From contig CBDBFU010000015.1 of assembly GCA_965205025.1 (NCBI GenBank), positions 413,501 to 477,500 on the forward strand: a stretch of DNA of 64,000 nt. Direction: 5' to 3'. The translations under genes were made by a program, and so were the position numbers. The notes beneath the pieces are model-generated. The model was not told where the DNA came from. It searched no databases and saw only the letters and a list, made by a program, of their open reading frames with translations. The stretch comes from Candidatus Poribacteria bacterium. Lineage in GTDB: Bacteria; Poribacteria; WGA-4E; WGA-3G. Positions 25,761 to 49,565 of this stretch are shown here, one piece after another; positions within the stretch are counted from its first letter, which is position 1; each line of letters opens with the position of its first letter.

Positions 25761-25950
25761 CAGGACTTACGCATTTCATCTTAAAGTCCCCCTGATAAGG
25801 GGCGGGGAATGCCCTAAGGCATTCATACCCGGGGAATGCTAAATAGCATTCATACCGTTGATTCCTTGATTCTTTAGGGGGTTAAAACACCGAAATGACG
25901 GATTTTTAAGTCAAATTTTACCTTTTTTTGCTTAAGTTGCGTAAGTCCTG
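25761..25950. mobile_element. MITE with CAGGACTTACGCA TIRs and TTGAA flanking duplication, containing nested hairpin repeats
   Basis: Perfect 13-bp TIR; ttgaa on both sides. Confidence 0.85.
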
Positions 25951-26028
25951 TTGAATTTCAAGTGTGGATATTTAAAAACGCCTCCACGGGGCGAGACCTT
26001 AAGTCCTTTCTTAAATATCCTCTGATTC

Positions 26029-27822
26029 CTATTTCATTATCAACATCTTTCGCGTTGCAGAAAAGTCACCTGCGGTGAGTGTATAAAAATACAAACCGCT
26101 TGCCACAGTTTCACCCAACGCATTTTTCCCATCCCAATATGCCGCACGGTCTCTGCTTTGATAGAGGCCCGCAGACTGATTGCCTATCGCAAGTGTCCGA
26201 ACCAAATTCCCATCTGCAGCGTAGATGGATAATGTAACATCCGCAGATGTCGCCAACTGATACGGTATCCATGTTTCCGGATTGAATGGATTCGGGTAGT
26301 TTGCGAGTAAGACACTCTTTTTTGGCACAACGTTTGATGAGATCAGGGGTGCTGCGGCATTGACTTTGTAAAGATAGAGTCTATCTCTACGCCAATTGAA
26401 GCTAAAATAGTAAGTAGGGACATCTTCGTTCTGCCCTTGAAATCGCAAAGCAGCATCAAGGTTATATGAGCGATAGGTGACGGCATTATCACCTGCAATC
26501 CAATCAAATCGGATTTTTGGAAACCCTTGAGCAAGACTTTCTTCATCTGACCTATGAGTATAGACATACCCAGTTTCAAGCGAATACTTCTGCCAAGAAT
26601 CGTTCTGTGTCCACCTCATTTGATAATGTACACGCACCCCTGTCGTGTTTCTAATTTTTACTGTCCACCTCTGGCGTAAAGTGTCAAGTAATGCCTTTAT
26701 GTTTTGGGTCGTTGCGGCCCCAGAGGAAGTTTCATCCGATCCCGCACTCAGGACACCGATAAGCACACCTTGACCGTTGAGGACGGGACCGCCACTATTG
26801 CCTTCATGCGTATCACCTTCCATTACTAAACACCCTACTAACTCACCTTCTTCGACTGGACAACTTGCTTGTGGCCCAAGGAAGGTTCCCTGTGTATAGT
26901 TCCACAACCGGTCCCCTGGATTTCCCAAGATATGAATCTTATCACCTCGTTTCATGCTATCTTCAACGTTCCGGCTAAAGTCGTGCTGAATCTCGCGGGC
27001 TGTCGACGGCAGCCGATCCAGTTGGAGAATTGCAAGGTCGTTTTCCACATTTTGTGCAATGACCTGTGCTTCTTCGGTAGCATACTTATTGGCTACAAGC
27101 CATTCCATATTGTCCAGGTAGAAATCCTCATCCTTCCGCAATCTTCCTTGATCTCTGTAAGGAAAAAACACAGAGATCCGCTCAGCATTCTCTATAACAT
27201 GCTGGTTGGTAACAATAAGCTTGCGATCCTTGTCAATCAAAAACCCACTTCCTTTACCAATCCAATTGCCCTTACCTGTACGTATCCACACAACAGAATG
27301 AATCGCTTGATCATAGATTTCCTGTGCTGGCAGATCAGCGGGCCCAACCGGATCACAGTCGGTACGTTTCGTAATGATATGTATACCGTCGTCCGTGTTG
27401 AATTCGTAGAGTGTAGCTGTATCTAAAGACGCTTGATTGTGATCACTATCCAAGTATTCCCCTGTTTCCGTCTCCACAACCGTAAATTTCCTTGTCGGAT
27501 GCAGCCAAAAAAAATAACTATCTCGCGTTTCATGGTCAAGTGGTTTAATTTCGTTACCATTAGGATCTTCTACACGAATATACACAAAATCATTATCAAC
27601 TGGGACCGATAGATTTATAAAACCGCCAGGTTCAATCTCATACCAACCTTCTGTCCGATAGCCTGCGGGTAAATCATCGCTTGCCTCTCTCCATGTGGAA
27701 TATATGACCCAGGCATCCTCTGTCGCGCTGCCATTAGCAACAAGGAAGTCCGCGGCTGCTAATTGTGTTAGAAGAAGTGTTGTTGTTAGAAAAATAAATA
27801 TGTAAAATATTTTCTTATACAT
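26029..27822 (-). CDS. Secreted trypsin-like serine protease (DUF1036-like N-term, FlgD-Ig tail)
   Basis: TNQHV, NDLAIL, GNSGGPV triad motifs; NYPNPFNPETW. Confidence 0.9.
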   Translation of the reverse strand: MYKKIFYIFIFLTTTLLLTQLAAADFLVANGSATEDAWVIYSTWREASDDLPAGYRTEGWYEIEPGGFINLSVPVDNDFVYIRVEDPNGNEIKPLDHETRDSYFFWLHPTRKFTVVETETGEYLDSDHNQASLDTATLYEFNTDDGIHIITKRTDCDPVGPADLPAQEIYDQAIHSVVWIRTGKGNWIGKGSGFLIDKDRKLIVTNQHVIENAERISVFFPYRDQGRLRKDEDFYLDNMEWLVANKYATEEAQVIAQNVENDLAILQLDRLPSTAREIQHDFSRNVEDSMKRGDKIHILGNPGDRLWNYTQGTFLGPQASCPVEEGELVGCLVMEGDTHEGNSGGPVLNGQGVLIGVLSAGSDETSSGAATTQNIKALLDTLRQRWTVKIRNTTGVRVHYQMRWTQNDSWQKYSLETGYVYTHRSDEESLAQGFPKIRFDWIAGDNAVTYRSYNLDAALRFQGQNEDVPTYYFSFNWRRDRLYLYKVNAAAPLISSNVVPKKSVLLANYPNPFNPETWIPYQLATSADVTLSIYAADGNLVRTLAIGNQSAGLYQSRDRAAYWDGKNALGETVASGLYFYTLTAGDFSATRKMLIMK

Positions 27823-27894
27823 TGATGATAAATAACTCCTTTATGGTATGATGAAAATTAAATTGTTGTCGCTAAGAGCCTCATTTATATAGGA

Positions 27895-28563
27895 TTACGA
27901 TAAAAATACCGCAATAAATGTTACATCAAGACTTACTCTAAATAGCCAAATAATGAGTGCTACGCAAAATGCCTTACCTTTGCTGACTTCTGCAAAAATA
28001 TGGATACCGATTGTCAACACAAAAACATACCACACAGCCACGAGGTTTATGTAGGAGAGGAACACTAGAACATGTTGATTTTGCAGGAATCCTCCTAATA
28101 TATGCAACCCTGGAATAACTCTCGTATCTATTCCGGATTGAATGTCCTCAATATCTCTAAAAATTGGAAGCAGACCCACATTCACGAAAAATGTCATTGT
28201 ACGAAGCAGCATGATATGCACAAAGGCTGCGTAGATATGTTTAAATTTTACTGCACTTGCTATCTTGCACAATCTGACTAAGACTGTGAGTACAATACTC
28301 AACAAAATCGTCATCAAGAAACTGTAACTCATTGAAAATACCGTAGTAGATACAACAGAAGGCGGTTTCTTAAGTGGTAATGTATTCGCGGAGCGAGCTG
28401 CGAGAAGCTGCTGCGTATATGGCACGAGTGCCCACGCTAAAATGACAGAAATTAAACAATAAAGTATAAAAACAACTACCCACTTCGGCTCGGATTTTAG
28501 CCGAGTAAACGCTGCCTTCGGGTTCATGATGATGTCAGTGAGGTTTTGTAGGCTTTCTTTCAT
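27895..28563 (-). CDS. Yip1-family membrane protein
   Basis: IMNPKAAF..LK..P.W start, multiple TM helices. Confidence 0.8.
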   Translation of the reverse strand: MKESLQNLTDIIMNPKAAFTRLKSEPKWVVVFILYCLISVILAWALVPYTQQLLAARSANTLPLKKPPSVVSTTVFSMSYSFLMTILLSIVLTVLVRLCKIASAVKFKHIYAAFVHIMLLRTMTFFVNVGLLPIFRDIEDIQSGIDTRVIPGLHILGGFLQNQHVLVFLSYINLVAVWYVFVLTIGIHIFAEVSKGKAFCVALIIWLFRVSLDVTFIAVFLS

Positions 28564-28584
28564 TAGTCTTCGTTATAAGGGCAG

Positions 28585-29100
28585 CTACAATTCAAAGATA
28601 GAAAAGATTGGTAAATTCCCGACCTTTTCTCGTCCGTTGAGTTCCGTGAGTTCTATTAACAAGGCAATGCCTACAATGTCTCCGTCCAGCTTCTCAACAA
28701 GTTCAACCGTTGCCGCAAGTGTGCCGCCAGTTGCCAAGAGATCATCACATAACAGCACCCGACTCCCCTTTGGAAATGCGTCTTGATGAATAGTCAGACT
28801 ATCAGTGCCATACTCAAGTTCATAGGTCACTTGATATGTGTCGTAGGGTAATTTCCCTCTTTTACGTACCGGTGCAAAACCTGCCCCCATACGATATGCA
28901 AGTGCAGACGCAAAAATAAACCCTCTGGCTTCGGGGCCCACAATTATGTCAACTCCCGCATCTTTGTAATGATTCGCGTAGACCTCAATTACAGCGTTGA
29001 AGACAGGGGCATTCCCTAAAAGGGGTGTAATGTCTTTAAATGCAATACCCGGCTTCGGAAAATCAGGTATCGTACGGATAAACTTCGTTAGATCGTTCAT
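28585..29100 (-). CDS. apt: Adenine phosphoribosyltransferase
   Basis: IPDFPKPGIAFKDITPL, EARGF, LEYG, DDLLATGGT. Confidence 0.97.
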   Translation of the reverse strand: MNDLTKFIRTIPDFPKPGIAFKDITPLLGNAPVFNAVIEVYANHYKDAGVDIIVGPEARGFIFASALAYRMGAGFAPVRKRGKLPYDTYQVTYELEYGTDSLTIHQDAFPKGSRVLLCDDLLATGGTLAATVELVEKLDGDIVGIALLIELTELNGREKVGNLPIFSIFEL

Positions 29101-29160
29101 AAAATCGTAAAACCTCTTGGTATTTATGGTAGCGTTTAAAATACTTGAAAATAGACATAA

Positions 29161-29342
29161 TACCATTTCTATTTAAATAGTTCACATTACGATCACTCTT
29201 AGTAGTCCCCCTGATAAGGGGCGGGGAATGCCCTAAGGCATTCATACCCGGGGAATGCTAAATAGCATTCATACCGTTGATTCCTTGATTCTTTAGGGGG
29301 TTTCTTCAATTTGTAATGAGTAATCATCATTTAGAAATGGTA
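29161..29342. mobile_element. MITE with TACCATTTCTA TIRs carrying the same core as 25761-25950
   Basis: taccatttcta / tagaaatggta; identical gtccccctgataagggg...tttagggggtt core. Confidence 0.75.
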
Positions 29343-29440
29343 TAACTATTGATATTTTACTATTCCGCGATACGCGGATAACCTTGTTTCTCAAATAGGT
29401 CCCTGTGTGCCACGGTTAAGAGGACTTGTATTGTTGTATC

Positions 29441-32400
29441 CTATTCCCGTCCCTTCTTGAAAGATGCCCATTGCGTTGTCATTTTCCCTTTAGCAGAAAT
29501 CAAACCGCGCAAGCGCGTTGTCGTAAGCGTTTGATGCACACCAGCATAAGACACATCTTCAATTTTATAGTAGTAAACAGTATTCGCCTTCGCGGTGTTA
29601 TCCATCCACGTATATTCAGTGCGTTCTCCCGTTGTGCCAGCGCCTTGTATCAGCTCGGTATTAACTCGCTGAAACTTGCCTGCCTTTGTTTGACTTCGGT
29701 AGATGTAGAACCCCGCATTGTCTACTTCTGATTCAGTTGTCCAGTTGATGACAACACCGTCAGCTGTATGCTCCGCTGTGAAACTGGATAGCGTCACAGG
29801 AAGTGGCGTACCCTTGCGATACCCAGGATTACCCACATCCGTGGCATCCCCGTAATAGGTGATGATTTTCGGTGGAACGTCTGCTGTAGACACCCACGCT
29901 TTGACATGCCTACCATCTAAAGGCAGCCGTTTTTTGTATAACCGTCGCAGAGATGCACGTGCACCATCGCTTGTTTCGCCGGGTGGTAATGTCCATGCAG
30001 GCGTGTCTTTGGTGTACGGGTAGCCGTCTAAGTTGCCGATAGTATCCACGACGTTGCCGGTAGCATCTGTGAGTTGGATCAGAAACCCGTCACTGCTGAG
30101 CAGGCGGAACCGATTTGGCATGGGTGAAAAAGTCTTCGGGTGCCGCTGAAACAGGTTGTAGGTGCGGTTAGCAGGTAAATGCTTCGAATGCACACCGCGT
30201 GCAGTTATGAGCAGCGCTGTCTGGTTCGGTAGCACATCAAACGCCTCAAACGTCATAACAATCTGCTGATGTTTGCCCTCTTGCAGCGTCTCAACAACAA
30301 GCTGATAGTCTTTGAGTTTCACAGAATCGGTAAAGGATGGATTATAGAGTTCAATCCACTGAGGCAAGGTTCGGGATCGGGTTTTTGTCTCAAACATTAT
30401 CTCACTGATACTCAAGGCAACCGTCGGACTTGTGCCGGGAACGATCTGGTGCAAAAATAACGGGGTAGCAATATCTGTCGGGTGTCCGTAATATGCGTTT
30501 ATGCCAATGGCGACCGATACGGCAGACATCCATCCCGAAGCCTTTGTGCCTTTCAACACATCGCCATCTTCAAAATTGCGGAGCAGTGAAAAACGGTGTC
30601 CTTGTGGTGTCATACTATCGGGTAGCGTCCATGTCGGCAGATCGTCCGTGTGTTCGTCGCCATCAAGGTTACCGACGCGGTCAACGACGCGACCAGTAGG
30701 ATGTATCAGTTTTAAAGAAAAACCCTCTGTGCCGAAGATTTTATTTTTGAGTTGTCGACTGAACACACCTGGCTGTGTCGAAGAGAGATGAAAAATCCGC
30801 TCGGTTGGCAGCGCATCCGAACTTTCACCCGACCGCCCAGTCCCCAAAAGCACCGTCTGTTTCGGCGGCAGCGAGAACGACTTGAGCACCAGACGAGCGT
30901 GTCGGTGTGTTCCGTCTGTCCGGGTTTCGATATCTAACTGATAGTCTTTCAAATTTATAGGTGTTTGAGAAGCGTTATACAACTCAATCCATTCAGAGGA
31001 TGCCCCCGAGAAATCATACATGAGTTCGCTGATTCGGACTTCATCAGGTAAAGTCGGAGTGAGAACACGGAGCGCACCATAGCCAGGCGTGCCCGGGCCG
31101 CTTGTGTTAGGGTCGTATCCGAGACCCGACTGTGATTCGCTCACTGTCCATGCCGCAGCAAGGTAGCCGGGTAACCGAACATCGCTGCGCTGCCAAGTGC
31201 CTTCCTCAGTCAGAGGGGCTACCGGGGCGAGGGGACGACGGGTATTAGCGAGAGGCCAGACCTCTGTGCTGCCATAGCCACGCAAATAATTGCCAGCAAC
31301 ATCCTCAATGGATGCTGGGGTGCCGTTTTTATCCCGGGCATGCCGTAAAATCAACAGATACGGTGTACCCGGTAGTTTCAAATCAGGGGCAACGAGATAC
31401 GGATGCTGTGCACCCTTCTGACGCGCACCTGTCGCTATATTCAACCCACTTGCAAGACGCGTTTCGCTCGGATCCGTATTCGTAATCAATAACACACCAC
31501 CACTCGGCAACCTATAGTCAGGGAACGATACAATGTCCACATCTTGATCCGCTGCGTCCCCTCTGTTCGCAACAATGCTGATCTCCCAATCCTTAAGCCG
31601 AATTTCCGCAGCATAAAGGTTTTTGAGTTCAATCCAATCGTTTGAATCCTCCCCAACGTTGTTGATCTCGTTGAAGATAAAGCAATGGGTTGCAAGTGGA
31701 ATAGGGGGCACAGTGACGGGTGGTGTGTCTACAGGTGGCACATCCCCTGGCGGGTAAATCGACGGCTCATCAGGTGGATCTACGGGTGGTTCGGGTTCTA
31801 CAGGTGGCTCTACAGGCGGGTCCACAGGTGGCTCAACGGGCGGTTCTACAGGCGGTTCCACAGGTGGCTCAACGGGCGGTTCTTCGGGTGGCTCTACAGG
31901 CGGTTCTACGGGTTCGTCAACATCTGTCACGGTGACGATCAATGTCTGGGTCGCTGTCAATTCGCGATCCCCGACACCACTCGTTGCCGTGAGGATTAAT
32001 GTATAGACGTTGCTATTCGCTGCACTCCCCGGCATCTCAAAGTCAGGGGCAACCTTGAAACGCAACATATCCGCCGGGGTGCTCGCACCACCGATCTCAA
32101 ATAACGCAGCATCTGCACCACCCGTAATCGCATACCCGGTAATCTCATCCTCCGCATCGGGGTCTTCCGCAATAATCGTGACAACCGCTGTTGTGTTCTC
32201 TGCAACATTCACTGCCGAGGCACTCCTGAAAACCGGCGGATGATTCACGGGTGCTGGCGGTTCAGGTGGTGGTTCCGGTGGGCGTGGTCCCGGGGGCGTT
32301 CGCGATAGGGTGCTGGCTGTCAGCACATTGCTCCCAGGTTCAATCTGACTCTCGCCTCGCAAGGCAAACAACTGGAAGTCATACGAGGTCCCCGGTTCAA

Positions 32401-34003
32401 GATCTAAATTAACATAACTAAATCGAGAAGGCAATCGCCCCAACTTCACGTGTTTTATCCACGCGCTATCCGCACTTTTCTTATAATAATGTTGGTATGC
32501 CGGGGGTAGAGTGCCGGTTACGTCAGCGATCCATTGCAAGCTTGTCTGCGTAACAGTTCCACGATCAAGCGTCAGCGTAATAACAGGCGGTGCGACAGCC
32601 GTTGCGGTGAATGTTTCCTTGAGTTCGGTATGTGTGGGACCCGCTGCGGGCATCTTCTCAGGGACAATTGCCTCTATGGTGTGCTTCTCGCCATCAGCGC
32701 CGAGGGTGATCGTCCACGATGACAACCCATCCTCGCCTGTTGGGACTATGTTTTCAGTTACTGTGCCGTCGGGGGCGGTAACCTTCCATGTGACAGGCAC
32801 TTCGTTGAATGTACGGTTTCGAGTTCTTTCAAGTGGATAGGTGCTGTAAGGGGTGTCATTAATGGCACGCACGACAAACGTTGCGCGTGATTCGGGGGTT
32901 CCTTCGTAATTATCAGCTGTCGGAGATTCCTTCACCAGACTCGGCGTAGAATCGAGATACTCGACTCTACGAACCGTTCCTAAGAGGGTTGGTATGTCTT
33001 CGTAGAGGGACGCATAGTCCAGTCTGAAGTTCCAATTCAATCTAATAGAGGTGTCTGCACTTACGACCTTCTCCTTGTTCATAAGCTCCACTAAAGGGGT
33101 GAGATCCTTCAGCAGAAAAAAGCGAGTCCCAGTGGCACTGGTACCCATGTATTGCAGATACAGGTTATGCATAAACACGCCGTCGGGTATCTTGTCTAAC
33201 ACAGAGAGGTCCGAGATCTCGGTGTTCGTAATATCTAAGCTCGCCCAATACGTTATTCCGTCTACTGGCTCCCTCGCACCCTCTAACGCAGGTAGCACGG
33301 CGGATAGACCTTCCTGGGTGATGGCAGTACTATTCATCCTTAAATCTCTCAAAGTACTTAAATTCGCCAAGGGCGAGATATCCCGCAGGTTCCAGTTTAC
33401 CCCGATCCGAAGCACTTCCAAGTTTGTTAGCGTTCCGATCGCTGTTATGTCCGTGATGCTACAACGATCAACGTAAACCCTCTTCAAACTCGTTAAATTT
33501 TGTAGGGGAGAGAGATCTGCAAGCTCGGAATTGGATGTAAGCACTAACTCTTCTAACGCCGATAAAGTCGCTAGGGGTGAGAGGTCTGTAACCCTATGTG
33601 TGTTAAGGCTCAGGAGGGTCAACTTTGATAGGTTCGTAAGGGGGCTCAAATCCGAAAGGGTGTTTGCTGTTGTTCTGGAACTGGGCGGATGTCGTATGCG
33701 ATTGCGCCCGATGTCCACCCTAACTAAATTGGTTGCATGCTCCAACCCCGTTAGACTATTAATGTCTGGACTGTCTTTGACGACTTCATCGAGTCCGCGC
33801 GTCTCCCCAACTCCCGCTATCTCGTTTGCGGTGATGGAGGCTCCAGCAGCCTTGTTGAGTCGATCTTCAATAATTTCACGAAGAGCCGCATTCGGAATAT
33901 CTACCGGGTGATTATCTTCACCACTTACGGTGTGCGGGTGCGCTGGGTACAGCGGTGTCAGAAAAAGTAGACCTATCAGAAAAGCAAGGAAAAGTTTTGT
34001 CAT
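29441..34003 (-). CDS. LRR/FN3/cadherin/Pro-rich/3x lamin-tail protein (paralog 2)
   Basis: Same architecture as 10789-16782; C-term GKMTTQW. Confidence 0.9.
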   Translation of the reverse strand: MTKLFLAFLIGLLFLTPLYPAHPHTVSGEDNHPVDIPNAALREIIEDRLNKAAGASITANEIAGVGETRGLDEVVKDSPDINSLTGLEHATNLVRVDIGRNRIRHPPSSRTTANTLSDLSPLTNLSKLTLLSLNTHRVTDLSPLATLSALEELVLTSNSELADLSPLQNLTSLKRVYVDRCSITDITAIGTLTNLEVLRIGVNWNLRDISPLANLSTLRDLRMNSTAITQEGLSAVLPALEGAREPVDGITYWASLDITNTEISDLSVLDKIPDGVFMHNLYLQYMGTSATGTRFFLLKDLTPLVELMNKEKVVSADTSIRLNWNFRLDYASLYEDIPTLLGTVRRVEYLDSTPSLVKESPTADNYEGTPESRATFVVRAINDTPYSTYPLERTRNRTFNEVPVTWKVTAPDGTVTENIVPTGEDGLSSWTITLGADGEKHTIEAIVPEKMPAAGPTHTELKETFTATAVAPPVITLTLDRGTVTQTSLQWIADVTGTLPPAYQHYYKKSADSAWIKHVKLGRLPSRFSYVNLDLEPGTSYDFQLFALRGESQIEPGSNVLTASTLSRTPPGPRPPEPPPEPPAPVNHPPVFRSASAVNVAENTTAVVTIIAEDPDAEDEITGYAITGGADAALFEIGGASTPADMLRFKVAPDFEMPGSAANSNVYTLILTATSGVGDRELTATQTLIVTVTDVDEPVEPPVEPPEEPPVEPPVEPPVEPPVEPPVDPPVEPPVEPEPPVDPPDEPSIYPPGDVPPVDTPPVTVPPIPLATHCFIFNEINNVGEDSNDWIELKNLYAAEIRLKDWEISIVANRGDAADQDVDIVSFPDYRLPSGGVLLITNTDPSETRLASGLNIATGARQKGAQHPYLVAPDLKLPGTPYLLILRHARDKNGTPASIEDVAGNYLRGYGSTEVWPLANTRRPLAPVAPLTEEGTWQRSDVRLPGYLAAAWTVSESQSGLGYDPNTSGPGTPGYGALRVLTPTLPDEVRISELMYDFSGASSEWIELYNASQTPINLKDYQLDIETRTDGTHRHARLVLKSFSLPPKQTVLLGTGRSGESSDALPTERIFHLSSTQPGVFSRQLKNKIFGTEGFSLKLIHPTGRVVDRVGNLDGDEHTDDLPTWTLPDSMTPQGHRFSLLRNFEDGDVLKGTKASGWMSAVSVAIGINAYYGHPTDIATPLFLHQIVPGTSPTVALSISEIMFETKTRSRTLPQWIELYNPSFTDSVKLKDYQLVVETLQEGKHQQIVMTFEAFDVLPNQTALLITARGVHSKHLPANRTYNLFQRHPKTFSPMPNRFRLLSSDGFLIQLTDATGNVVDTIGNLDGYPYTKDTPAWTLPPGETSDGARASLRRLYKKRLPLDGRHVKAWVSTADVPPKIITYYGDATDVGNPGYRKGTPLPVTLSSFTAEHTADGVVINWTTESEVDNAGFYIYRSQTKAGKFQRVNTELIQGAGTTGERTEYTWMDNTAKANTVYYYKIEDVSYAGVHQTLTTTRLRGLISAKGKMTTQWASFKKGRE

Positions 34004-34313
34004 CTGAAACTCCTATGTTTTTGAAAGAATCCTGGTCCTTATCTAAATCGTTTTTTTCACTGCATTGAAGGCAAAACAGAAGAAACTACTACAACTACTA
34101 ATTTCAGCAGGTTTGAGAGCCGGTTCAACAACTAAAACATTAAGGACTGCGGATTTTTGATAAATTAACTTGATTGCCGTTAACTCAGTCGGCTGTAACA
34201 TCATAGAAACATACTCCTTCTGATGGCTATTCCGCAATACGCGGATAACCTTGTTTTCAAATAGATAGATCGTTGAGTGTCTCAGTTAAAGGGACTTGTG
34301 TTGTTGCATCCTG

Positions 34314-40300: not shown

Positions 40301-40978
40301 GTGGGTGACGAGGGTATTATCAAGCCGTAGAATCTCTAAAGTGCTTAACTCCGTCAGGGGCGTGATGTCCGAGAGATTCCGATTGCTCTCAAGCCTGAGT
40401 TGCCTCAAATTTGTCAGACCGCTGACCCCTGATATGTCCGTGATCCGATTGTGTTCAAGTCGTAGGTGAACGAGCTCTGTGAGTTTCGATAGGTCTGGGA
40501 TCCGGCTAATGCCATAGGTATAAACAAGGGCCACATCTCTAAGGTTTGTTAAATTCGCGATGGGTGTCATGTCGAAAACGACAGATCCTTGAATCGTCAG
40601 ATGTTCCAAGTTCGTGAGTTTTGTTAGAGGCTCGAGATCCGCCGTCCGCCAACGCGGACGGGCGTTTAATTCTGCCTGGGTTTGAGGAGGAGGCTGACGT
40701 AATGTCAGTCTCGTGAGGTTGACAGCATGCTCCAAACCTCTCAGATGACGAATGTCTGGGCCATTTGCGAAGACATTCGCCAGTGTCTTCATATCGTCTG
40801 CGGTGATCGGATCCGTAGGTGCCTTAGCGAGGCGGCCTGCGACGATTTTACGGAGCTCAGGATCCAGTATATCCACCATGCTGTGATTCTCTACACCATT
40901 TACGGCGTGCGGGTATGCCTGGTGCAGCGATGTCAGAAAAAGTAGACCTATCAGAAAAGCAAGGAAAAGTTTTGTCAT
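34314..40978 (-). CDS. LRR/FN3/cadherin/Pro-rich/6x lamin-tail protein (paralog 3), one frameshift (~2221 aa reconstructed)
   Basis: ORFs 38045-40978 and 34314-38135 join collinearly with paralog 1 if one base is added near 38084-38086. Confidence 0.85.
38585..38815. repeat. 12-bp coding tandem repeats (PPVE/PPVD linker); also ~14410-14570 and ~31765-31915
   Basis: ggttctacaggt units. Confidence 0.9.
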
Positions 40979-41116
40979 TTGAAACCCCTTTGTTTTTGAA
41001 AGAATCCTGGTCCTTATCTAAATCGTTTTTTCACTACATTAATGTACAAACAGCAGAAACAACTACAACTCATGCCAGATATGGTATAATTAATTATATA
41101 GTTATAATACGTCAAT

Positions 41117-41608
41117 TTGCAGTTTTAATCAAATTATATATTTAGTTATATGACGTCAACTATTTTTTATTATTCTGTAATAATTTTTTAGTCGTTTATA
41201 ACTAACTACTAACGTGAGTTTGATAAATAGTTAGATCTTCCACATTTCCTCTTAAAGTCCCCCTGATAAGGGGTGGGGAATCCTAAATAACATTCATACC
41301 CGGGGAATGCCTAATGAAGATTAATTTTTAAATTCGGTAATTTTGGAGAAAGATCCAGTGCGGTTAGGAAACCGCACCTACCGGGTTTGGGAAAATTAGA
41401 ATTACCGAAATATTTAGTTAATCTTCATATGGCATTCATACCGTTGATTCCTTGATTCTTTAGGGGGGTAAAACACCGAAATGACGGCTTTTTAAGTCAA
41501 ATTTCACCTTTTTCTGCTTGCAGTTTTAATCAAATTATATATCTTTAGTTGTATAACGCCAACTATTTTTTATTATTCTGTAATAATTTTTTAGTCGTTT
41601 ATTACTTA
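41117..41608. repeat. ~90-bp AT-rich direct repeat (41117-41206, 41518-41608)
   Basis: ttgcagttttaatcaaattatata...aactattttttattattctgtaataattttttagtcgttta twice. Confidence 0.85.
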
Positions 41609-42180
41609 CAAAGGACTTACGCATTTCATCTTAAAATCCCCCTGATAAGGGGTGATTCAGAAAAACACCTCTTTGTACCACAAACTTGGTAGGTTCGGTT
41701 TCCTAACCACGGGGAATGCTAAATGAAGATTAACTTTTAAAATCGGTAATTCTAATACCTCCAGACTTGGTTGGTATTGAGTCCCGTAGGGACGGAATGT
41801 CTATAGCAAAGGTACATATCCACATAATTGAGTCCCGTAGGGACGGAATGTGTATTGAAGTCGTTATCTCCAATATTCTAAGCCCCGGTGAATGCCATAA
41901 GGCATTCACCGGGGAATGACTAAATGTCGTTCATACCGTTGATTCCTTGATTCGCGGGGCGAAAGGTGTGTAGAAAACGTACTAAACCACTAAACCTAAG
42001 CCCCGGTGAATGCCATAAGGCATTCATACCGTTGATTTGCGGGGCGAAAGGTGTATCCTTAACCAGTATAATACCGATAACCCGTATAATACCGAATTAT
42101 TATTTTAATCTTCATTTAGTTTGTAATCTTACCCTTTCCCCTCTCAAAACACTCTTATCCGCGTAATCCGTGATTCAGAA
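41211..42180. repeat. Cluster of nested MITE/REP-like elements
   Basis: TIR pairs ATGAAGATTAA/TTAATCTTCAT (41314-41428, 41723-42115), GAATGC hairpins, REP doublets. Confidence 0.85.
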
Positions 42181-42272
42181 TAATATTCGTAGGTCGGTAG
42201 AGCGGAGCGAAAACCGTCATCTTCAACGGGAGATTCTAAAACTAAATAACCCTATATGCAAATGAACAAAAC

Positions 42273-42301
42273 TTGACAAAAAATAGGATTCTTGATAATA
42301 T
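42273..42301 (+). promoter_or_regulatory. Putative sigma70 promoter
   Basis: TTGACA-17 bp-TAATAT with TG extension. Confidence 0.5.
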
Positions 42302-42350
42302 ATACTCATAAATTATGTAAAAATTCGACATTTGTGAGTGTCTACATACC

Positions 42351-45236
42351 ATGAAAACCAATATTCTACAAAATATTATCTCACGTTGCCACCAGCGACA
42401 TAAGAACCCGCTTTCGCAACGACGGACGACTATAAGACCTCTGCATTACAAAGGACTTCCTTACCATTTCAAAGTCTATTGTGCATTCAAATACCGTGTG
42501 ATGCTCCATGAATTGGAAGCGGCAGATATTTCCTTTATGCCGATGGGAGAATTTCCTGGCAATGACCGGCCCCCGCGTTCTTTTGACGTCGAACGTTCCT
42601 TGAAACGCCAAGAGGCGAATGACTGGGAAGCCTTCCGTTGGCATAGGTCTTGGGGAATCCTAATATGTACGGGTATTCCGTCAGCACGCAATGGCGCGGC
42701 ATGGCACGACATAGACTTTAAATATGAAGCTATCTGTGCTGCACCTGATGTTGTTCTTACCTGTATTCAAGCACTTGTTGACGCCGTTGCGAACCCATTG
42801 TTAACGATGACAATATCTGGTGGGCTGCGCTTTTCTTGCAGGATACCGGACTACCTACACCCGAACACCAAGGAAGAACGGCTGTATGTTCATAAGCATG
42901 CGCCGACGGCGGAAAATCCCCACCAGCACACTACCTATCTTGAAATTTTGGGGGAGAAGGGATATGGACGTTGGGATGCACGCCACGAACTTCTACTTGG
43001 CGATCTGTCAGACCCACCTGTGATTTCCAAAGATGTGCTTTTTCCGTCTATTAGTGCTCTTCGAGATGCACTTCACGAACCGATTCCGCAAGACCTCCCA
43101 CCCGAAGAACCCATCATCGAAGCACCAAAGTATCTCGGATCGGGTAAACTTGACCTCGCTAAAGAGGCATTTTTCAAGCGCGGGTTTTCTTACCTCAAAC
43201 AAGAGGATGAATGCCACTACTGGAGCAGGCGATATAGCAAAGTTGAAACACAGGTATCGTTGTGGGAAAGCGAAGGAAAGGTGTGGATACGTGCCTCCAC
43301 CCCTGATACTGGACTGCCTGTGCAGGCAACGCTCATCACAGATGTTTGGGAAGATACCGGCATCCTCCCCTCAATCCCCGAGACAGGGAAGCCTATGGAC
43401 GAGAAAGTACCCCCCATACGAGCTGGAGAACTCAGCCCGCTGGCAATAAAACGTTATCGTCCCGTGGTACACAAGGCAGAACATCCCATAAAGATTGATG
43501 AAACACGCGAAGAATTTTCTGTTCTGATGCAACGCGCCCTCAATAGCAGGATTAGTGCTCTTAGATTCATTCCCAATGCAGATTCAGAGAAAGACAGTGA
43601 AGTAGAATCCATCCTGCGTAATAGTGGAGCAATATGTCTAAATGTGTCAGGGGATAAGCTTACAAAAGTAAATATTCTTGAGGATCACCGAGTGTTTTTG
43701 GACCCGCAACACACAAAAATAGCGGAACAAATTCTGGAACAGCGTGATGAAACACAGCAGCTTTGTATCATCAATGTCACAAGAGAAGATGAACTCTATT
43801 TTCAATGCGAACTATCAAAAACTACATTGGAAAATTGGATCGTCAACTGGAAAGGTCATGCCTTAGGAAACTTTGCCACAGCCCTACTGAATGTAACTGA
43901 AATCATAGATAAATCTCATGACATTTCTATCAGACGACTTCGGACAGTGATACAAACCTATGAATGGCTGGAACAAGAACTCATTCGACAGATGTGTCAC
44001 GACGTTGAGGATAATCAAGAGGCACCAACAGTTTGTACGGACCCAAACTGGACCTTTTGGCATCAACTCAAACGTTTCTTTGCACATTACACAAGCGATG
44101 CTAATGCACCGATGCTGTGGGAGGACAAAGAACTCCGATTCTGGTTACCGCCAATGCTGCATCCAAACATCAAACACCTTTTGGTCACATCGCCAACTCT
44201 CAACGACGATCATCTACGACGAGTGTTTTTGGATGAGGAAACTGAGATTTTTCCCATCCAACCGATGGCGTGGGCTCCCGGAACACGCGTTTTTCAGTTT
44301 CGCTCCGATGTTTATTTACGAAAGACAATTTTAGATCTCTACAACACATGGGACGTTTTTGGGGTGTCTGAAACCGGGCAGCACATTTTTTCCAGAATAC
44401 AAAATGAAATAGAAAGGGATCCAAATGTTAAGCATGGAATTATAACCCACGTTCACACAATTAGATATTTAGATCATATCGCGAAAAATGAAAATGTCTG
44501 TTTCTTGACAGCGTTCCGACATAGAGAAGGATTAGATGCAGCTTTTCAAGAGGCGCAGATCATCTGGATTGTTGGCATGCCGGAAGTGGGAGCACGCGCC
44601 ATTTCGGATCGAAGTCAGAAATTGTTCGGAAACGACGAGAAACCCCTCTCCTATCTGACGGAACCTAAGTTTTACCCTTACCTAGATCATAGGCATTACC
44701 GGTACAAAGACGACCGCGTTCAGACCGTTTATGAGAAAGAAGCCATTCATATATTCACACAGGTTTTACAAATGGCTCAAATAAACCGTTTGCCAAACAA
44801 GACAATCATGTTGATTACGAGTTTGCGAATCCCTGAAATCACCGATAGACCCGAAACAACCCTTTTTGACTGGGGAGATCTTGATGTTGCCGGTGAGATA
44901 GACAAACTCCTCGATGTGATACCCACACGCATACATTTTGAGCAGGAAAGTGAAAAACTGACAGTTGAATCAACCAGAATAGAGGTAGAAAGGGTTTTGG
45001 GATGCTCCACGAGGCAGGCACAACGAGTGATGCAAAAACTAAGAGGTGGTGGATTAGCACGTGTCCCCTTCCGTAAACAAATTGTTGAATTTCTCGCTGA
45101 CGGAGAGAAAAAAACACCGGAAATCGTTGCGGCGATTAAAGGACATCCAAAAGCAATAAATTCAGAACTCACACGCATGGCAAAAGCAGGTACGATTGTA
45201 AAGGTCAAACGAGGGTTATATCGATTGCCTGATTGA
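42351..45236 (+). CDS. Large hypothetical protein; PrimPol-like N-terminus, C-terminal winged helix
   Basis: WHDIDF, TISGGLRF, LEILGEKGY motifs; C-term SELTRMAKAGTIVKVKRGLYRL. Confidence 0.55.
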   Translation: MKTNILQNIISRCHQRHKNPLSQRRTTIRPLHYKGLPYHFKVYCAFKYRVMLHELEAADISFMPMGEFPGNDRPPRSFDVERSLKRQEANDWEAFRWHRSWGILICTGIPSARNGAAWHDIDFKYEAICAAPDVVLTCIQALVDAVANPLLTMTISGGLRFSCRIPDYLHPNTKEERLYVHKHAPTAENPHQHTTYLEILGEKGYGRWDARHELLLGDLSDPPVISKDVLFPSISALRDALHEPIPQDLPPEEPIIEAPKYLGSGKLDLAKEAFFKRGFSYLKQEDECHYWSRRYSKVETQVSLWESEGKVWIRASTPDTGLPVQATLITDVWEDTGILPSIPETGKPMDEKVPPIRAGELSPLAIKRYRPVVHKAEHPIKIDETREEFSVLMQRALNSRISALRFIPNADSEKDSEVESILRNSGAICLNVSGDKLTKVNILEDHRVFLDPQHTKIAEQILEQRDETQQLCIINVTREDELYFQCELSKTTLENWIVNWKGHALGNFATALLNVTEIIDKSHDISIRRLRTVIQTYEWLEQELIRQMCHDVEDNQEAPTVCTDPNWTFWHQLKRFFAHYTSDANAPMLWEDKELRFWLPPMLHPNIKHLLVTSPTLNDDHLRRVFLDEETEIFPIQPMAWAPGTRVFQFRSDVYLRKTILDLYNTWDVFGVSETGQHIFSRIQNEIERDPNVKHGIITHVHTIRYLDHIAKNENVCFLTAFRHREGLDAAFQEAQIIWIVGMPEVGARAISDRSQKLFGNDEKPLSYLTEPKFYPYLDHRHYRYKDDRVQTVYEKEAIHIFTQVLQMAQINRLPNKTIMLITSLRIPEITDRPETTLFDWGDLDVAGEIDKLLDVIPTRIHFEQESEKLTVESTRIEVERVLGCSTRQAQRVMQKLRGGGLARVPFRKQIVEFLADGEKKTPEIVAAIKGHPKAINSELTRMAKAGTIVKVKRGLYRLPD

Positions 45237-45269
45237 AAGTTGTAGGTAAACTCTGTTTGCTATCAATCT

Positions 45270-48086
45270 TTAGAAAGTTTGCGCTAACCTCGCTATGGCT
45301 AACCGGCCAATTATAGGTGAACCCACAAATTGTTGGTGTTTATGATTGAGTAAGTTTTGAATCGTTAACGATAACCTCGGTTTAGGACCTAATGGAATAT
45401 CATACCCAGCATTTAAATCCACTGTGTAATACGAATCTACCTCACCAACATAAACACCGGATCTTACAGGGAATCCTTGGACGTATCGTGTTCGGAGACC
45501 CATACCTAACCCCAATCCTGGGTTTGTATATTGAATATTGGCTCCAAACTTATTTTTCGGTGCATTCAGTGCGATATTAACTTCTTCAAAGAAATCATTA
45601 CTTACGAAGGAGTAATTAGCACCAAGACTCCAATTCATATTAAGGAACAACGTTAAATTCAGATCTAATCCGTTGACTGATATGTCACCATAGTTCCGGT
45701 AAGTCAACATGACTGCGTTTGGATCAACTGCCTGTTCAGGTGTTACTGTACCGAATGGTATAAACGCAGCACCATTATTATCTGTACCTGCAACGAAGAG
45801 AGAAACTAATTCGTCCACTGCGGAACCATTACCATTTCCTCCCTGAGTAGGTGAATCAAATGCAAGTAGGGCTTGGACAAGTCCATCATTCTCAGGATCA
45901 GTTAAAGATTCCCTAATCTGTTGTTCAAGCGAAGCAGCTAATGTATCGGCATCTAAAAACACATTTGGTGTTTCAACAAACAATGGACCGATAAGATTAT
46001 TAATCCTTGAGTGGTAGACATCAGCAGAAAATGCCAATTGGTTTAGAAGGATTCCTTTATAACCAATTTCATAGGTCTGGGTAATTGTTGGCTCAAGAAC
46101 GTCAACATCATTTACATCTTCAACATCTATGAAACTTGATGTCTGCGGATCAAGTGAACGTAGTACATTCTCTACCCCTGTTACCTGTTGAGGAATAACA
46201 TTATCAAACCCCTCTAAAAGTGCTGTAACCATATCAGGGGGAAGTCCCTGTGCTGTTAAACCCGCTTCAAATACCGGCTTTGCACCACTCATCACAGCAC
46301 TTCTGGCAACACCCCACATCACATTGGTAAAAACTGGATCATTAAGAGGGAAGTATGTACCATTAGGTTGTTCAGCCAAAGCTGAGAAGGGAGATCTAAA
46401 CAATGGGGTGCCGTTTTCACTTCTCTTGAATGTAAAACCGGAATCCGAGGGTACACCTTGGGCACGGATATCGATATTTGGACTATAACCTAATGCAGGT
46501 TGGAAGTTTGCCCCTAATTTGAATGCATCGACAGATGATAAAATATCAAGGAATAGGTTTGATGTTCCTGGAGTATTAAATGCACGGTTATAGGTGATTC
46601 TAACGTTGTGATCTTCATTTGGTTGTAAGGCAAGGGCAACCCGTGGTGATAGAACAATATCATTGAGATGATTGTGCTGATCTGCTCTACCGGCGGCAAG
46701 GAACTTCAGTTGCGGCAATATATTGGTTTCCGATTGTAGATACACACCTAATTCGTTAATGTCATCTTTTTCTTCATTTACACCATTGATTGTACCTTCG
46801 GTATCTGGACGGGTTAGCAAGGCATCGAATCCGTATGTAAATCGTTGTATTTCTCCCAATCCAATACTATGCTGTATCTGTCCTACATGCAGGTTTGAAT
46901 TGTCAATAGTAGGTAAACCCGTTCTGATAACATAGGTATCACCTGCATCACTTCGATTGGTAAAAACTTGCGCGAATAAGTCTTTATAGATAAAACGTGC
47001 TTGCGCATATCCGTAATTCCAGTTCTTTGCTTGTCCAGCACCAATTCCTGTTAGTTCTATTCCTGAGGCTTGGGTTAAACCGCTTGCAAGAATAACAGTG
47101 ACATCATCACCAGGACTATAATCTACGCGAAATTCACCTCGAGCATGTGAAGTATCAAATAGAGGTGCTTGTTTCCCTTCAACATCCTCTTTTGCACGGC
47201 CCTCTTCCCAATCGTGTCCTCGAGTATAATTGCCTGTTAGTTTATATCCAACAGAATCGTTTATCACCCCCGCATGTCTAAGGGATCCAATAAATATATT
47301 ACGTTCACCTCCTCCTAAACTAACTGTTGTGCCTTGTGAAGTAAAGGGTGATCGTGTGAGAATATGCATCACACCATTGGCACTATTTGGACCGTATAAC
47401 GCTGCGCCGGGACCAGATACGACCTCTATCTGCTCAATATCTTCACTAATCGTTGGTATCAGTGTATACGCGTTAACACGAAGTGAAGGTACACTTGCAA
47501 TCCTATTATCAACAAGGGATAAGAGATTTCCTGAGAACACATTATTGAAACCACGGACAACAACATAGGATGTACCAATTCCAGATGTAATAACATCTAC
47601 TGCGCGTAAAGATTTTAGGTGTTCAGTAACACTCATTGCAGCACGATCCTGTATCTGGGTGTTATCAATTACCGCAACCGAAGCAGGTGCTTCGAGTACT
47701 TTCTCTTTACGACGAGAGGCTGTCACTGAAACTTTCTCAAGTTCAAGGATCTCTGAAGTGAGGGGTGAAAGTGCAATCTCTACAGATTTAGTTTCATCTG
47801 AAGCAAGTCGAATGTTCTTCATAATCCCTTCAGCATATTTTGTTGAAGATGTGGTAATGGTATAGTTCCCAACAGTTAATTCTTGAATTTTCAGAGAGCC
47901 ATTTACATCACTGTTCCCTTGAGCAACATTTCCGACTTCAGAATTGATTGTTATAGATACACCCATGATCGGTTTTCCTGTTTGTGAATCTTTGATTGCG
48001 ATGTCCAATGTTGCTGCGTCTGCTATTCCGACCAGTATGAATAAGGATAAAAAAAATAAAATACAAAATGCGATAGATAGTTTCAT
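45270..48086 (-). CDS. TonB-dependent receptor
   Basis: VSVTASRR, GPGAALYGPNSANGV plug motif, NLLN, terminal F. Confidence 0.95.
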   Translation of the reverse strand: MKLSIAFCILFFLSLFILVGIADAATLDIAIKDSQTGKPIMGVSITINSEVGNVAQGNSDVNGSLKIQELTVGNYTITTSSTKYAEGIMKNIRLASDETKSVEIALSPLTSEILELEKVSVTASRRKEKVLEAPASVAVIDNTQIQDRAAMSVTEHLKSLRAVDVITSGIGTSYVVVRGFNNVFSGNLLSLVDNRIASVPSLRVNAYTLIPTISEDIEQIEVVSGPGAALYGPNSANGVMHILTRSPFTSQGTTVSLGGGERNIFIGSLRHAGVINDSVGYKLTGNYTRGHDWEEGRAKEDVEGKQAPLFDTSHARGEFRVDYSPGDDVTVILASGLTQASGIELTGIGAGQAKNWNYGYAQARFIYKDLFAQVFTNRSDAGDTYVIRTGLPTIDNSNLHVGQIQHSIGLGEIQRFTYGFDALLTRPDTEGTINGVNEEKDDINELGVYLQSETNILPQLKFLAAGRADQHNHLNDIVLSPRVALALQPNEDHNVRITYNRAFNTPGTSNLFLDILSSVDAFKLGANFQPALGYSPNIDIRAQGVPSDSGFTFKRSENGTPLFRSPFSALAEQPNGTYFPLNDPVFTNVMWGVARSAVMSGAKPVFEAGLTAQGLPPDMVTALLEGFDNVIPQQVTGVENVLRSLDPQTSSFIDVEDVNDVDVLEPTITQTYEIGYKGILLNQLAFSADVYHSRINNLIGPLFVETPNVFLDADTLAASLEQQIRESLTDPENDGLVQALLAFDSPTQGGNGNGSAVDELVSLFVAGTDNNGAAFIPFGTVTPEQAVDPNAVMLTYRNYGDISVNGLDLNLTLFLNMNWSLGANYSFVSNDFFEEVNIALNAPKNKFGANIQYTNPGLGLGMGLRTRYVQGFPVRSGVYVGEVDSYYTVDLNAGYDIPLGPKPRLSLTIQNLLNHKHQQFVGSPIIGRLAIARLAQTF

Positions 48087-48199
48087 TATACTATCTCCTT
48101 TCAATCTTACGAATTGTGCTAAATAACTTTTAGTAATCAATAGTTTCACATAAATATGGCTTTGTATGAATATCCTTCATTAAGTTAATACTATCTTTA

Positions 48200-48543
48200 G
48201 TCCCGGGGAATACCTAATAAAGATTAAGTTTTAAATTCGGTAATTCCCATTTTCCCAAATCCGGTAGGCGGGGAATGCTAAATAGCATTCATACCGTTGA
48301 TTTGCGGTTTCCTAACCACGGGGAATGCTAAATAGCATTCATACCGTTGAACCGAATTTCTAACACATTACCGAATTATTATTTTAATCTTCATATGTCA
48401 TTCATACCCGGGGAATGACTTAATGGCATTCATACCGTTGATTCCTTGATTTGGTAGGGACGAAATGTTTATAGCACAAATTAAAAATCCGTGAAAACAA
48501 CAAATACAATTAAATGTAGCCCCAGCGGGGCGAAATGTGTATT
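48200..48543. repeat. Nested MITE/REP cluster
   Basis: gtccc|...|ggtagggacg hairpin split by nested elements; partner REP at 48517-48543. Confidence 0.85.
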
Positions 48544-48611
48544 CCTAAAATATCTGATAATTGTCCAAACTATAGTAATTATTTTACATAGAGATCTTAG
48601 TGTCTGTAGTA

Positions 48612-49565
48612 CTAACTTAAGAAATCTACAATTTCTTCATGAGTTGGTAGGGATGGAATTACACCGACTTTCTGAGTTGCTAATGCTCCTGCTGCGTTGG
48701 CATACCGCATGATGAAATCCAATTGATCTTTTTGCAGTGATGATAGGTTCCCATGTTTTATCAACTTACTGAGCATAGCTGCAACGAACGCATCACCTGC
48801 CCCGAGTGTGTCCACGACTTCAACATTGTAACCATCTACATATCCATCAGCATTTCCATTAGTATAATAACAACCCCGTTCTCCTAATGTTACAACAAGC
48901 AACTTCACACCGAGTTCAAGTATCCGTTCAATCCCTTGTGATAATTTCACATCACCAGTAACAAACTCCCATTCCTCTTCTGAAATCTTGACGACATCCG
49001 CGTAAGGCATCACTTCCCAAATCCATTGTTTTGCATCATCTGCGTTGTCCCACAACATCAACCGCAAATTCGGATCATAGGAGATGAATGCACCTGCTGA
49101 CTTGGCAGCTTGAATCGCTGTGAGTGTTGCTTCACGCGTCGGTGAATGGCTAAGACTAACTGACCCGTAATGAAACAATTCCGCTGACTGGATATATGTT
49201 ATATCAATTTCATCCGGTGAGAGTTGTATATCTGCCCCCGGGTGCCGGTAGAATGTAATATCTTTCATACCATCGGAACGCGTAGCTACGAAAGCTAATG
49301 TGGTTCGAGAATCCTCTCCAGCTATAAGATATTCTGTGTCGACGTTTGTTTGTTTAAGTGTTTCTGTCAAAAAGTCCCCAAACGGATCCGCACCGACTTT
49401 ACCAATGAAGCCGGCTTCTATACCAAATTTTGCCAATCCGACAGCGACGTTCGCAGGAGCACCACCAGGTGCTTTAACAAAACCTTGCGCATCAGTAAGA
49501 GTTACATCCGGTGTTGTGGAAACAAAATCAATGAGGAGTTCACCGATACATAGTGCTTTTGGCAT
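48612..49565 (-). CDS. PfkB-family carbohydrate kinase (fructokinase-like)
   Basis: GGAPANVA, YDPNLR, DTLGAGDAF. Confidence 0.95.
   Translation of the reverse strand: MPKALCIGELLIDFVSTTPDVTLTDAQGFVKAPGGAPANVAVGLAKFGIEAGFIGKVGADPFGDFLTETLKQTNVDTEYLIAGEDSRTTLAFVATRSDGMKDITFYRHPGADIQLSPDEIDITYIQSAELFHYGSVSLSHSPTREATLTAIQAAKSAGAFISYDPNLRLMLWDNADDAKQWIWEVMPYADVVKISEEEWEFVTGDVKLSQGIERILELGVKLLVVTLGERGCYYTNGNADGYVDGYNVEVVDTLGAGDAFVAAMLSKLIKHGNLSSLQKDQLDFIMRYANAAGALATQKVGVIPSLPTHEEIVDFLS

Follow-up and report, generated by a model that had tools for sequence, protein, structure and literature searches.

How repeats of 20-40 bases spread has been an open question since the small dispersed repeats (SDRs) of Nostoc were described. 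SDRs are about 20-27 nucleotides (nt) long. The families SDR1-8 of Nostoc punctiforme and its relatives were reportedly described by Elhai et al. in 2008 in Genome Res 18:1484. One section of PMC2884548 gives the size of SDRs as 'some 20 bp', a passage in PMC4390886 describes the HIP1 palindrome as precisely interrupted by SDR5 between its bases 3 and 4, and a statement in PMC5861425 reports SDRs only in Nostocaceae. Here we analysed a stretch of 64,000 nt from a Candidatus Poribacteria bacterium, a sponge symbiont (assembly GCA_965205025.1, contig CBDBFU010000015.1, positions 413,501 to 477,500; hereafter the window), which holds a short hairpin-plus-tail repeat, hereafter the unit. SDRs resemble the unit in being very small, non-coding, present in high copy, thought to be mobile without a known enzyme, and found inside other repeats; the unit lies in repeats, in palindromes and in itself, and it has filled and empty sites without target-site duplication (TSD). 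The unit differs in its length of 35-36 nt (with a hairpin module of 27 nt), in its hairpin-plus-tail build, in nesting with one tail per hairpin, in replacing 0-5 host bases and in its Poribacteria host, and the two are likened by description, not by consensus sequence. SDRs are the closest published analogue, and the unit would be at most an analogue of them. A preliminary description of this DNA had drawn the parallel to Nostoc, which is apt as an analogy but wrong as taxonomy, since the host belongs to the Poribacteria and its genome holds only 9 HIP1 sites. A literature search on Poribacteria together with REP, MITE, RAYT or repeats found no description of such repeats, and the papers examined that cite Elhai 2008 were, judged by title, not on other phyla.

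We lean towards the view that the unit is a non-autonomous micro-element which enters hairpin DNA as a whole hairpin plus tail, is recognised at its conserved foot and tail, and has a mobiliser that is probably not a Y1 transposase. The unit consists of a 27-28-nt hairpin and the 8-nt tail GTTGATT(C/T), at times with one further base. The hairpin reads CGG(G/T)GAATG, two variable pairs, a loop and then CATTCATACC, and both its 5' and its 3' limits are constant between copies. Folding of the unit as single-stranded DNA gave -5.7 to -9.8 kcal/mol (z -3.2 to -5.4). In the window, the core CATTCATACCGTTGA at no more than 2 mismatches has 8 matches, all on the + strand, where 0.22 were expected and 0 of 100 shuffles reached 8. 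The genome (5.66 Mb in 33 contigs) contains 228 exact cores (122 on the + strand, 106 on the - strand), or 251 hairpins under a slightly wider pattern. Of these 251 hairpins, 228 have T:A as the arm pair, 17 have C:G, and in 6 this pair is broken; the first variable pair is C:G in 213, A:T in 19 and T:A in 7, and the second is C:G in 151 and T:A in 88. The middle of the hairpin pairs in 25 of 39 distinct forms, compared to a mean of 11.5 and a maximum of 19 in 1000 shuffles. The preliminary description had noted a hairpin with compensatory stems in more than ten copies; we read 10 complete hairpins in the window, and the stem covariation was confirmed genome-wide. On the preferred view the unit is selfish and non-coding, with a conserved foot (CGGKGAATG / CATTCATACC) and with an upper stem and loop that are free to vary.

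Identities as an integron attC site, a CRISPR repeat or a minimal MITE (miniature transposable element with inverted repeats) were considered and dropped on the basis of the sequence, which shows neither AAC...GTT pairing nor spacers nor a TSD. Terminal inverted repeats that match a parent insertion sequence (IS) and a TSD, by which a MITE is recognised, were not found at the unit.

The copies were grouped into 214 arrays to count their contexts. By a crude call of open reading frames, coding sequence makes up about 82% of the genome; 211 of the 214 arrays are intergenic, and only 3 have no recognisable repeat on either side. Seven host sites were identified, and filled and empty forms coexist for all of them, as a census proposed in the preliminary description had been meant to establish. 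These are a repetitive extragenic palindrome (REP) that we call REP-a (empty form GTCCC/GTAGGGAC; 160 empty, about 22 filled), REP-b (GCCCC-A-G(C/A)GGGGC; 109 empty, about 25 filled), host c (CCCCTGATAAGGGG-GA-TTTAGGGG; 40 empty, 14 filled), three places in a GTAG palindrome, namely its loop (GGTKCGGTTTCC-TA/CA-ACCGMACC; 57 empty, about 11 filled), the junction of tag and stem (GGTAGG-T-GCGG; 122 empty, 8 filled) and the 3' arm (TAACC-GCACT-GGAT; 34 empty, 12 filled), and as the seventh CTGTRGG. For each array, the 10 flanking bases of each side were joined with a gap of 0-6 bases and searched with at most 1 mismatch per side. By this measure, 158 of the 214 arrays have at least one empty paralogue compared to 15 of 70 random intergenic 35-nt segments used as controls, and 139 of the 214 have at least three compared to 1 of the 70.

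About 99 of the 214 arrays lie in an apical loop (of REP-a, REP-b, host c or the palindrome, with 7 in the loop of another unit), and some 76 are located in an arm or adjacent to a GTAG tag; hairpin arms and feet hold many of the copies. A closing stem of at least 5 bp was present in 24 of 214 arrays compared to 9.3 in shuffled sequences under a first definition of the flanks; this score is weak partly because the first C of the unit overlaps the host stem, and contexts were instead counted by host class. Further hairpins of different kinds harbour the unit in other species, among them a sister hairpin family with the unit in its loop, and a closing stem of at least 5 bp was found at 12 of 50 sites, compared to a shuffle mean of 2.75 and a maximum of 9. 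The preliminary description had proposed a structure-targeting element. The targeting of repeats holds, in that nearly all arrays adjoin another repeat, but only about half of them occupy apical loops.

The comparison of empty and filled hosts revealed no target duplication at any of the seven host sites. Insertion is not clean: 0-5 host bases are replaced, and in six of seven host sites these are A, GA, TA/CA, T, G or 5 nt. At the arm site the replaced stretch is five bases long; for REP-a it is either zero or one base, according to the parsing of the junction. The preliminary description had proposed entry without duplication, which is confirmed by these comparisons, whereas the loss of host bases modifies it. 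The base preceding the GGGG of the unit is always C, and the two bases before the unit are mostly CC or GG, with left flanks ending in TCCC, GCCC, AGGGG, TTTCC, GTAGG, ATACC, ATGCC and AACCA; at 50 sites of other species, the left flank was CC in 18, GG in 15 and other in 17. Apart from this preference, no fixed tetra- or pentanucleotide target such as TTAC or TTGAT was found at the left flank. Other small palindromic repeats have received new copies in at least seven different places, and the unit itself in two, always in one orientation. All 40 clusters that hold more than one array are uniform in orientation, neighbouring arrays separated by less than 300 nt form 48 direct and 0 inverted pairs, and clusters run with the local gene majority in 103 cases compared to 49 opposite (68%; binomial p ~1e-5). 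This strand bias fits a strand-specific process, such as replication or transcription, and does not tell an enzyme from a template switch.

The commonest site of entry of the unit into itself is its 3' foot, CATTCATACC^G. Among arrays with a single hairpin, 135 of 187 have one tail octamer (no tail in 19, two in 20, three in 9, four in 2 and five in 2), and among arrays with two hairpins, 19 of 25 have two tails (one in 3, three in 2 and five in 1); one array has five hairpins and four tails. In double arrays the inner and outer loops usually differ, many different inner/outer loop combinations obey the rule of one tail per hairpin, and the last octamer retains the final base specific to its host. 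The outer tail of doubles is always CTTGATTY and never GTTGATTY. Since the number of tails tracks the number of hairpins and the outer tail begins with C, these results point to insertion of the whole hairpin plus tail with one base replaced. Insertion of a bare 27-mer was also considered; it would give mostly one tail in doubles, which was not seen. The filled and empty hosts, this nesting rule and the scarcity of arrays without a neighbouring repeat bear out the earlier suggestion of a parasite of repeats.

Tandem runs were observed at C2:253200-253700, C5:~36600 and C20:~99000 (contig:position). They comprise five hairpin modules with a 27-nt period and arrays of the 8-nt tail, CCTTGATT, with the variants CCGGGATT and CCTGGATT, in up to five or more units.

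The unit is not confined to this genome. An exact 15-mer of it was found in 39 of 39 other genomes of the same genus (1-426 copies), and a second genus has it in 59 of its 65 genomes; it was absent beyond both genera, from 7 genomes of four other genera of the family and from 24 genomes of three other families of the order. Of the 112 genomes of the family, 99 contain the unit, and in 13 it was not found. Several genomes of the genus have only 1-9 copies. Self-nested junctions occur in 33 of 40 genomes of the genus, and their number correlates with copy number (rho 0.83). Among the matches listed in species-representative genomes, the hairpin is found in the same hosts in at least about 50 Candidatus Poribacteria loci, and the listed matches outside Poribacteria are lone 15-mers without the hairpin. 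Viral contigs gave 0 matches to the hairpin pattern. Since the foot and the tail are exactly conserved over two genera, they are likely to be recognised.

The sister hairpin (CCGAATGCCATACGCGCATTCGGCGTTGATTTGG) carries the tail of the unit and has 3 copies in this genome (C23:~52860 and C13). It is common in other Poribacteria (loci L073, L106, L112 and L116), where the main unit lies in its loop.

The preliminary description had taken TTGAT and TCAA to be cleavage motifs of IS200/IS605 HUH transposases and had proposed mobilisation in trans; PMC6006769 contains none of the motifs TTGAT, TTAC or TCAA. Elements of the IS200/IS605 family and their miniature derivatives, palindrome-associated transposable elements (PATEs), have two subterminal hairpins, a fixed left target of 4-5 nt and precise insertion. 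The unit is like them in bearing a hairpin, in lacking TSD and terminal inverted repeats, and in its strand bias. It differs in having one hairpin per 35-nt unit, in inserting imprecisely without a fixed target, and in living in a genome without any gene for TnpB (PF07282). The REP, bacterial interspersed mosaic element (BIME) and REPIN systems that depend on REP-associated tyrosine transposases (RAYTs) share with the unit an extragenic palindrome of 20-40 nt and a high copy number in clustered, mosaic, mostly intergenic arrays, whereas the unit starts with CGGKGAATG and has no GTAG (or GTGG) tag, which is a property of the host repeats, and forms no inverted doublets. By the defining features of these systems, the unit is neither a REP or REPIN nor an IS200/IS605 derivative.

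The genome has three Y1_Tnp (PF01797) genes of 157 amino acids each, which score 100 bits with the Pfam model, 84.3 with the NCBIfam IS200 model (cut-off 55) and 32.7 with REP_Tyr (cut-off 80). Inverted arrays of REP-a type flank all three genes and 5 orthologues in other species, in one of which the hairpins have co-varied; the unit flanks none of them. A search for a Y1 or RAYT gene bordered by the unit's own hairpin, which the preliminary description had recommended, thus led to REP-a instead. Y1 with inverted REP-a is a classical REPtron whose repeat is REP-a and not the unit. Each of the three Y1 genes is preceded, about 45 nt ahead of its start codon, by gttgatt(t/g)ggtaaggac (L001 1430-1460, L003), which is the right-hand junction of a unit inserted in REP-a, minus the hairpin, and is not conserved in the orthologues of other species.

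Cutting and pasting of the unit in trans by such a Y1 enzyme (IS200/IS605 TnpA or RAYT), through TTGAT-like motifs of the tail, would be consistent with this REPtron, with three host sites at or beside the GTAG tag, with a tail octamer CTTGATTC that is one base off the REP-a left flank CTTGAGTC, and with a strand-biased insertion that leaves no TSD. A passage in PMC3733652 also notes that REPtrons can be lost while REPs persist. We nevertheless regard this explanation as unlikely, because the distribution of the unit does not follow that of the enzyme. Across 37 genomes, which as kin are not independent, the unit count has a rho of -0.08 with Y1 matches and of 0.20 with the REP-a count, whereas REP-a does co-vary with Y1 genes. 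Four of the 40 genomes of the genus have no Y1 gene (among them a single-contig assembly, another in 4 contigs and a third that is only 73% complete); their REP-a copies number 0, 5, 2 and 3 compared to a median of 93 elsewhere, and yet they carry 98, 104, 116 and 33 units compared to a median of 57. In the converse case, a genome with 195 copies of REP-a and 3 Y1 matches has a single unit. The flanking of Y1 by REP-a, the missing tag, the 0 of 48 inverted neighbour pairs, the variable left flank and the loss of 1-5 host bases likewise argue against it.

Several observations weigh against the preferred view. The loop variant correlates strongly with the host class: one variant accounts for 40 of 46 copies in the arm context (a class of 46-57 copies) and for 14 of 16 copies in REP-a. 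Since the arm context is part of a MITE of about 150 nt, its filling points to one event followed by amplification of the MITE, and the tie of loop variant to host means that many copies are passengers and that independent insertions number far below 228. In addition, short-patch gene conversion between units could mimic some movements. The 249 genes that lie no farther than 600 nt from a unit include no multi-copy family that is its regular neighbour, and no mobilising enzyme was found. The share of cores (at no more than 2 mismatches) that are perfect is 53-60% in three Y1-less genomes compared to 63-77% in three Y1-bearing genomes, and this slightly lower share leaves room for a role of Y1. 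No orthologous empty site was readable at the base level in the 48.1-48.6 kb spacer of the three nearest genomes of the genus, in which the flanking genes are 85-90% identical, and presence or absence of copies was not readable in four public sequencing runs, where assembled contigs end at the repeats and pieces pile up. The argument for recent movement is thus based on paralogous sites that are empty, on nesting and on the spread of copy numbers.

Another explanation is that the unit is not mobile itself: a few ancient illegitimate events, such as template switching at stalled hairpins, would have been followed by amplification of the hosts and by recombination or gene conversion. The dominant loop variant of each host class, the slightly ragged junctions with lost host bases and the lack of an enzyme among neighbouring genes agree with this, as do arrays with chimeric flanks. 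Passive spread is nonetheless quite unlikely in our judgement. The unit has entered at least 9 distinct places in this genome, with additional ones in other species, the limits of the unit are constant, and the equality of hairpins and tails holds over many loop combinations. REP-b contains 9 loop variants at exactly one position, and the same variants recur in several host classes. Copy number ranges from 1 to 426 within one genus, and the conserved foot and tail imply recognition. The independent entries are far fewer than 228 and more than a handful, and some filled hosts, notably the IS630-type MITE, were later amplified with the unit as a passenger.

In eight arrays the two flanks derive from different hosts, for example REP-a on the left and REP-b on the right. 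If units recombine with one another, such chimeric hosts are as expected, and the units would act as recombination points.

At 48150-48612 in the window, a 250-nt nest of repeats lies between two conserved genes; the corresponding spacer of the nearest relatives lacks this nest entirely, and the contigs of one relative end at this spacer. Two public runs contain the stretch (shares 0.90 and 0.86), and eight more contain it with small shares.

The intergenic position of the arrays and the 68% of clusters that run with neighbouring genes, together with conservation across two genera and compensated stems, could also mean that the cell retains the unit for its usefulness, either as a site bound by protein or as a hairpin, in RNA or DNA, that acts on transcripts or on the structure of the chromosome, with spread being secondary. 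Similar roles have been proposed for REPs. Such a function, which would not exclude mobility, appears very unlikely as the explanation: several healthy genomes of the genus manage with 1-9 copies, and the copies pile up in other repeats and in themselves, not at defined gene positions. No T-run for termination was found at the unit, and no Rfam family matched within positions 25000-49000 of the window.

The window copies occupy four intergenic spacers (Table 1). The complete hairpins, by sequence reading, start at 25803, 25830, 29222, 29249, 41887, 41910, 42004, 48269, 48319 and 48409, and further units are split into halves. Every context named in the preliminary description was found, that is the GTAG palindrome, agcccc/gcggggcg, gtccc/ggtagggac, host c and the unit itself. 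The first nested double folds as DNA at -15.5 kcal/mol (z -4.8), and the single unit in the second REP-b, folded with its host, at -14.6 kcal/mol (z -4.1).

Table 1. Unit copies and host repeats in the window, and the Y1 genes of the genome (contig C27)
Feature	Position	Strand	Parts and context	Basis
Nested double unit in host c	25803..25872	+	host ccccctgataagggg / tttaggggg; outer hairpin 25803-25829, inner hairpin 25830-25856; inner tail GTTGATTC 25857-25864, outer tail CTTGATTC 25865-25872	sequence reading
Second nested double unit in host c	29222..29291	+	architecture as 25803-25872	
Unit 3' half and two tail octamers	41431..41458	+	GGCATTCATACC; IS630-type MITE right end (ttaatcttcatat) before, host c tttagggggg after	
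Unit 5' half in GTAG palindrome arm	41710..41724	+	CGGGGAATGCTAAAT; cut by MITE left end (gaagattaac)	
Two empty REP-a copies	41779-41793, 41830-41844	+	gagtcccgtagggac; unfilled host form	
Unit in REP-b loop, second unit at its 3' foot	41887..41953	+	host aagcccc / gcggggcg; second unit 41910-41945; outer unit with 3 bases lost (CATTCA-C); outer tail 41946-41953	
Single 35-nt unit in loop of second REP-b	42004..42038	+		
Four-level nest in one REP-a	48205..48453	+	host gtccc 48200-48204 ... gtagggac 48454-48461; outer unit split in its loop (48205-48218 / 48395-48408) by MITE 48219-48394, which bears a GTAG palindrome with two further units inside; additional unit 48409-48444 at the outer unit's foot; outer tail 48445-48452	
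Unit between GTAG tag and palindrome stem	48269..48303	+	ggtagg / gcggtttcctaacc	
Unit in 3' arm of the 48269 palindrome	48319..48350	+	taacca / accgaatttc; tail shortened to GTTGA	
Y1 gene copies	C27:72631-72975, 86996-87340, 53137-53481		inside inverted REP-a arrays (gagtcccgtagggacggaatgtctatag)	

The unit is itself a target. An IS630-type insertion sequence at C12:421400-423200 encodes a 395-amino-acid transposase with DDE_3 and helix-turn-helix domains and has the ends tgaagattaa...ttaatcttca. Its MITE derivatives of 130-167 nt sit in the loop of the unit (in the window at 48219-48394 and at 41395-41430 plus 41725-41770). About 20 units are split in the loop by the IS630-type MITE and 7 by the full 1.26-kb element, and they are split because the IS630-type element inserted into the unit. 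Between 41395 and 41770 in the window, the halves of a MITE-split unit are permuted: the MITE right end and the unit 3' half lie at 41395-41458, the unit 5' half and the MITE left end at 41710-41770, and a lone left arm of host c at 41637-41655 between them, which suggests a rearrangement between repeat copies. IS1397 and ISKpn1, which appear in the reference list of PMC3116915, are insertion sequences aimed at REP loops. Like the unit, these elements and the resident IS630-type IS and MITE target the tip of a small hairpin repeat, but they are coding or bounded by terminal inverted repeats and make TSDs, whereas the unit is neither and is a target of the IS630-type element.

Under the preferred reading of a non-autonomous micro-element, a single-stranded hairpin plus tail would be copied or pasted whole where hairpin DNA is single-stranded or extruded, the replication fork being the probable place. 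A trans-acting factor other than the Y1/RAYT transposase of the genome would recognise the conserved foot and tail, and the perfect upper stems might be kept by selection for folding or by template-switch correction within the hairpin. Quasi-palindrome template-switch mutagenesis, reportedly known from the E. coli work of Ripley and of Lovett, could, with no transposase involved, explain perfect, co-varying upper stems and small ragged junctions; its reach is a single hairpin, however, and it would not transfer a constant 35-nt unit to unrelated sites. More speculatively, and with the doubt that such a proposal deserves, the unit may be a near-minimal replicator without a dedicated transposase, a 35-nt hairpin plus tail that hijacks replication or repair at extruded hairpins or relies on a family of enzymes to which transposition has not yet been attributed. 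Its route may be template switching or capture at hairpin tips opened by a nuclease, and it may have been kept across two genera of Poribacteria independently of the neighbouring REP-RAYT system.

Judged by its behaviour, the unit would rank among the smallest known kinds of mobile DNA, and no enzyme that might move it is obvious. A second phylum, unrelated to that of Nostoc, behaves alike and offers a cleaner anatomy, with constant ends, a nesting rule, defined entry places and many empty copies. Within one genus there is a natural experiment, in which a REP family vanishes together with its Y1 transposase while the unit stays. This contrast leaves a narrower field in which to look for the mobiliser and supplies concrete substrates with which to test it in vitro or in a heterologous host. 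For the Poribacteria themselves, the nests of repeats break genome assemblies, as seen where contigs of the nearest relatives and of public runs end, and they create recombination points, seen as chimeric hosts.

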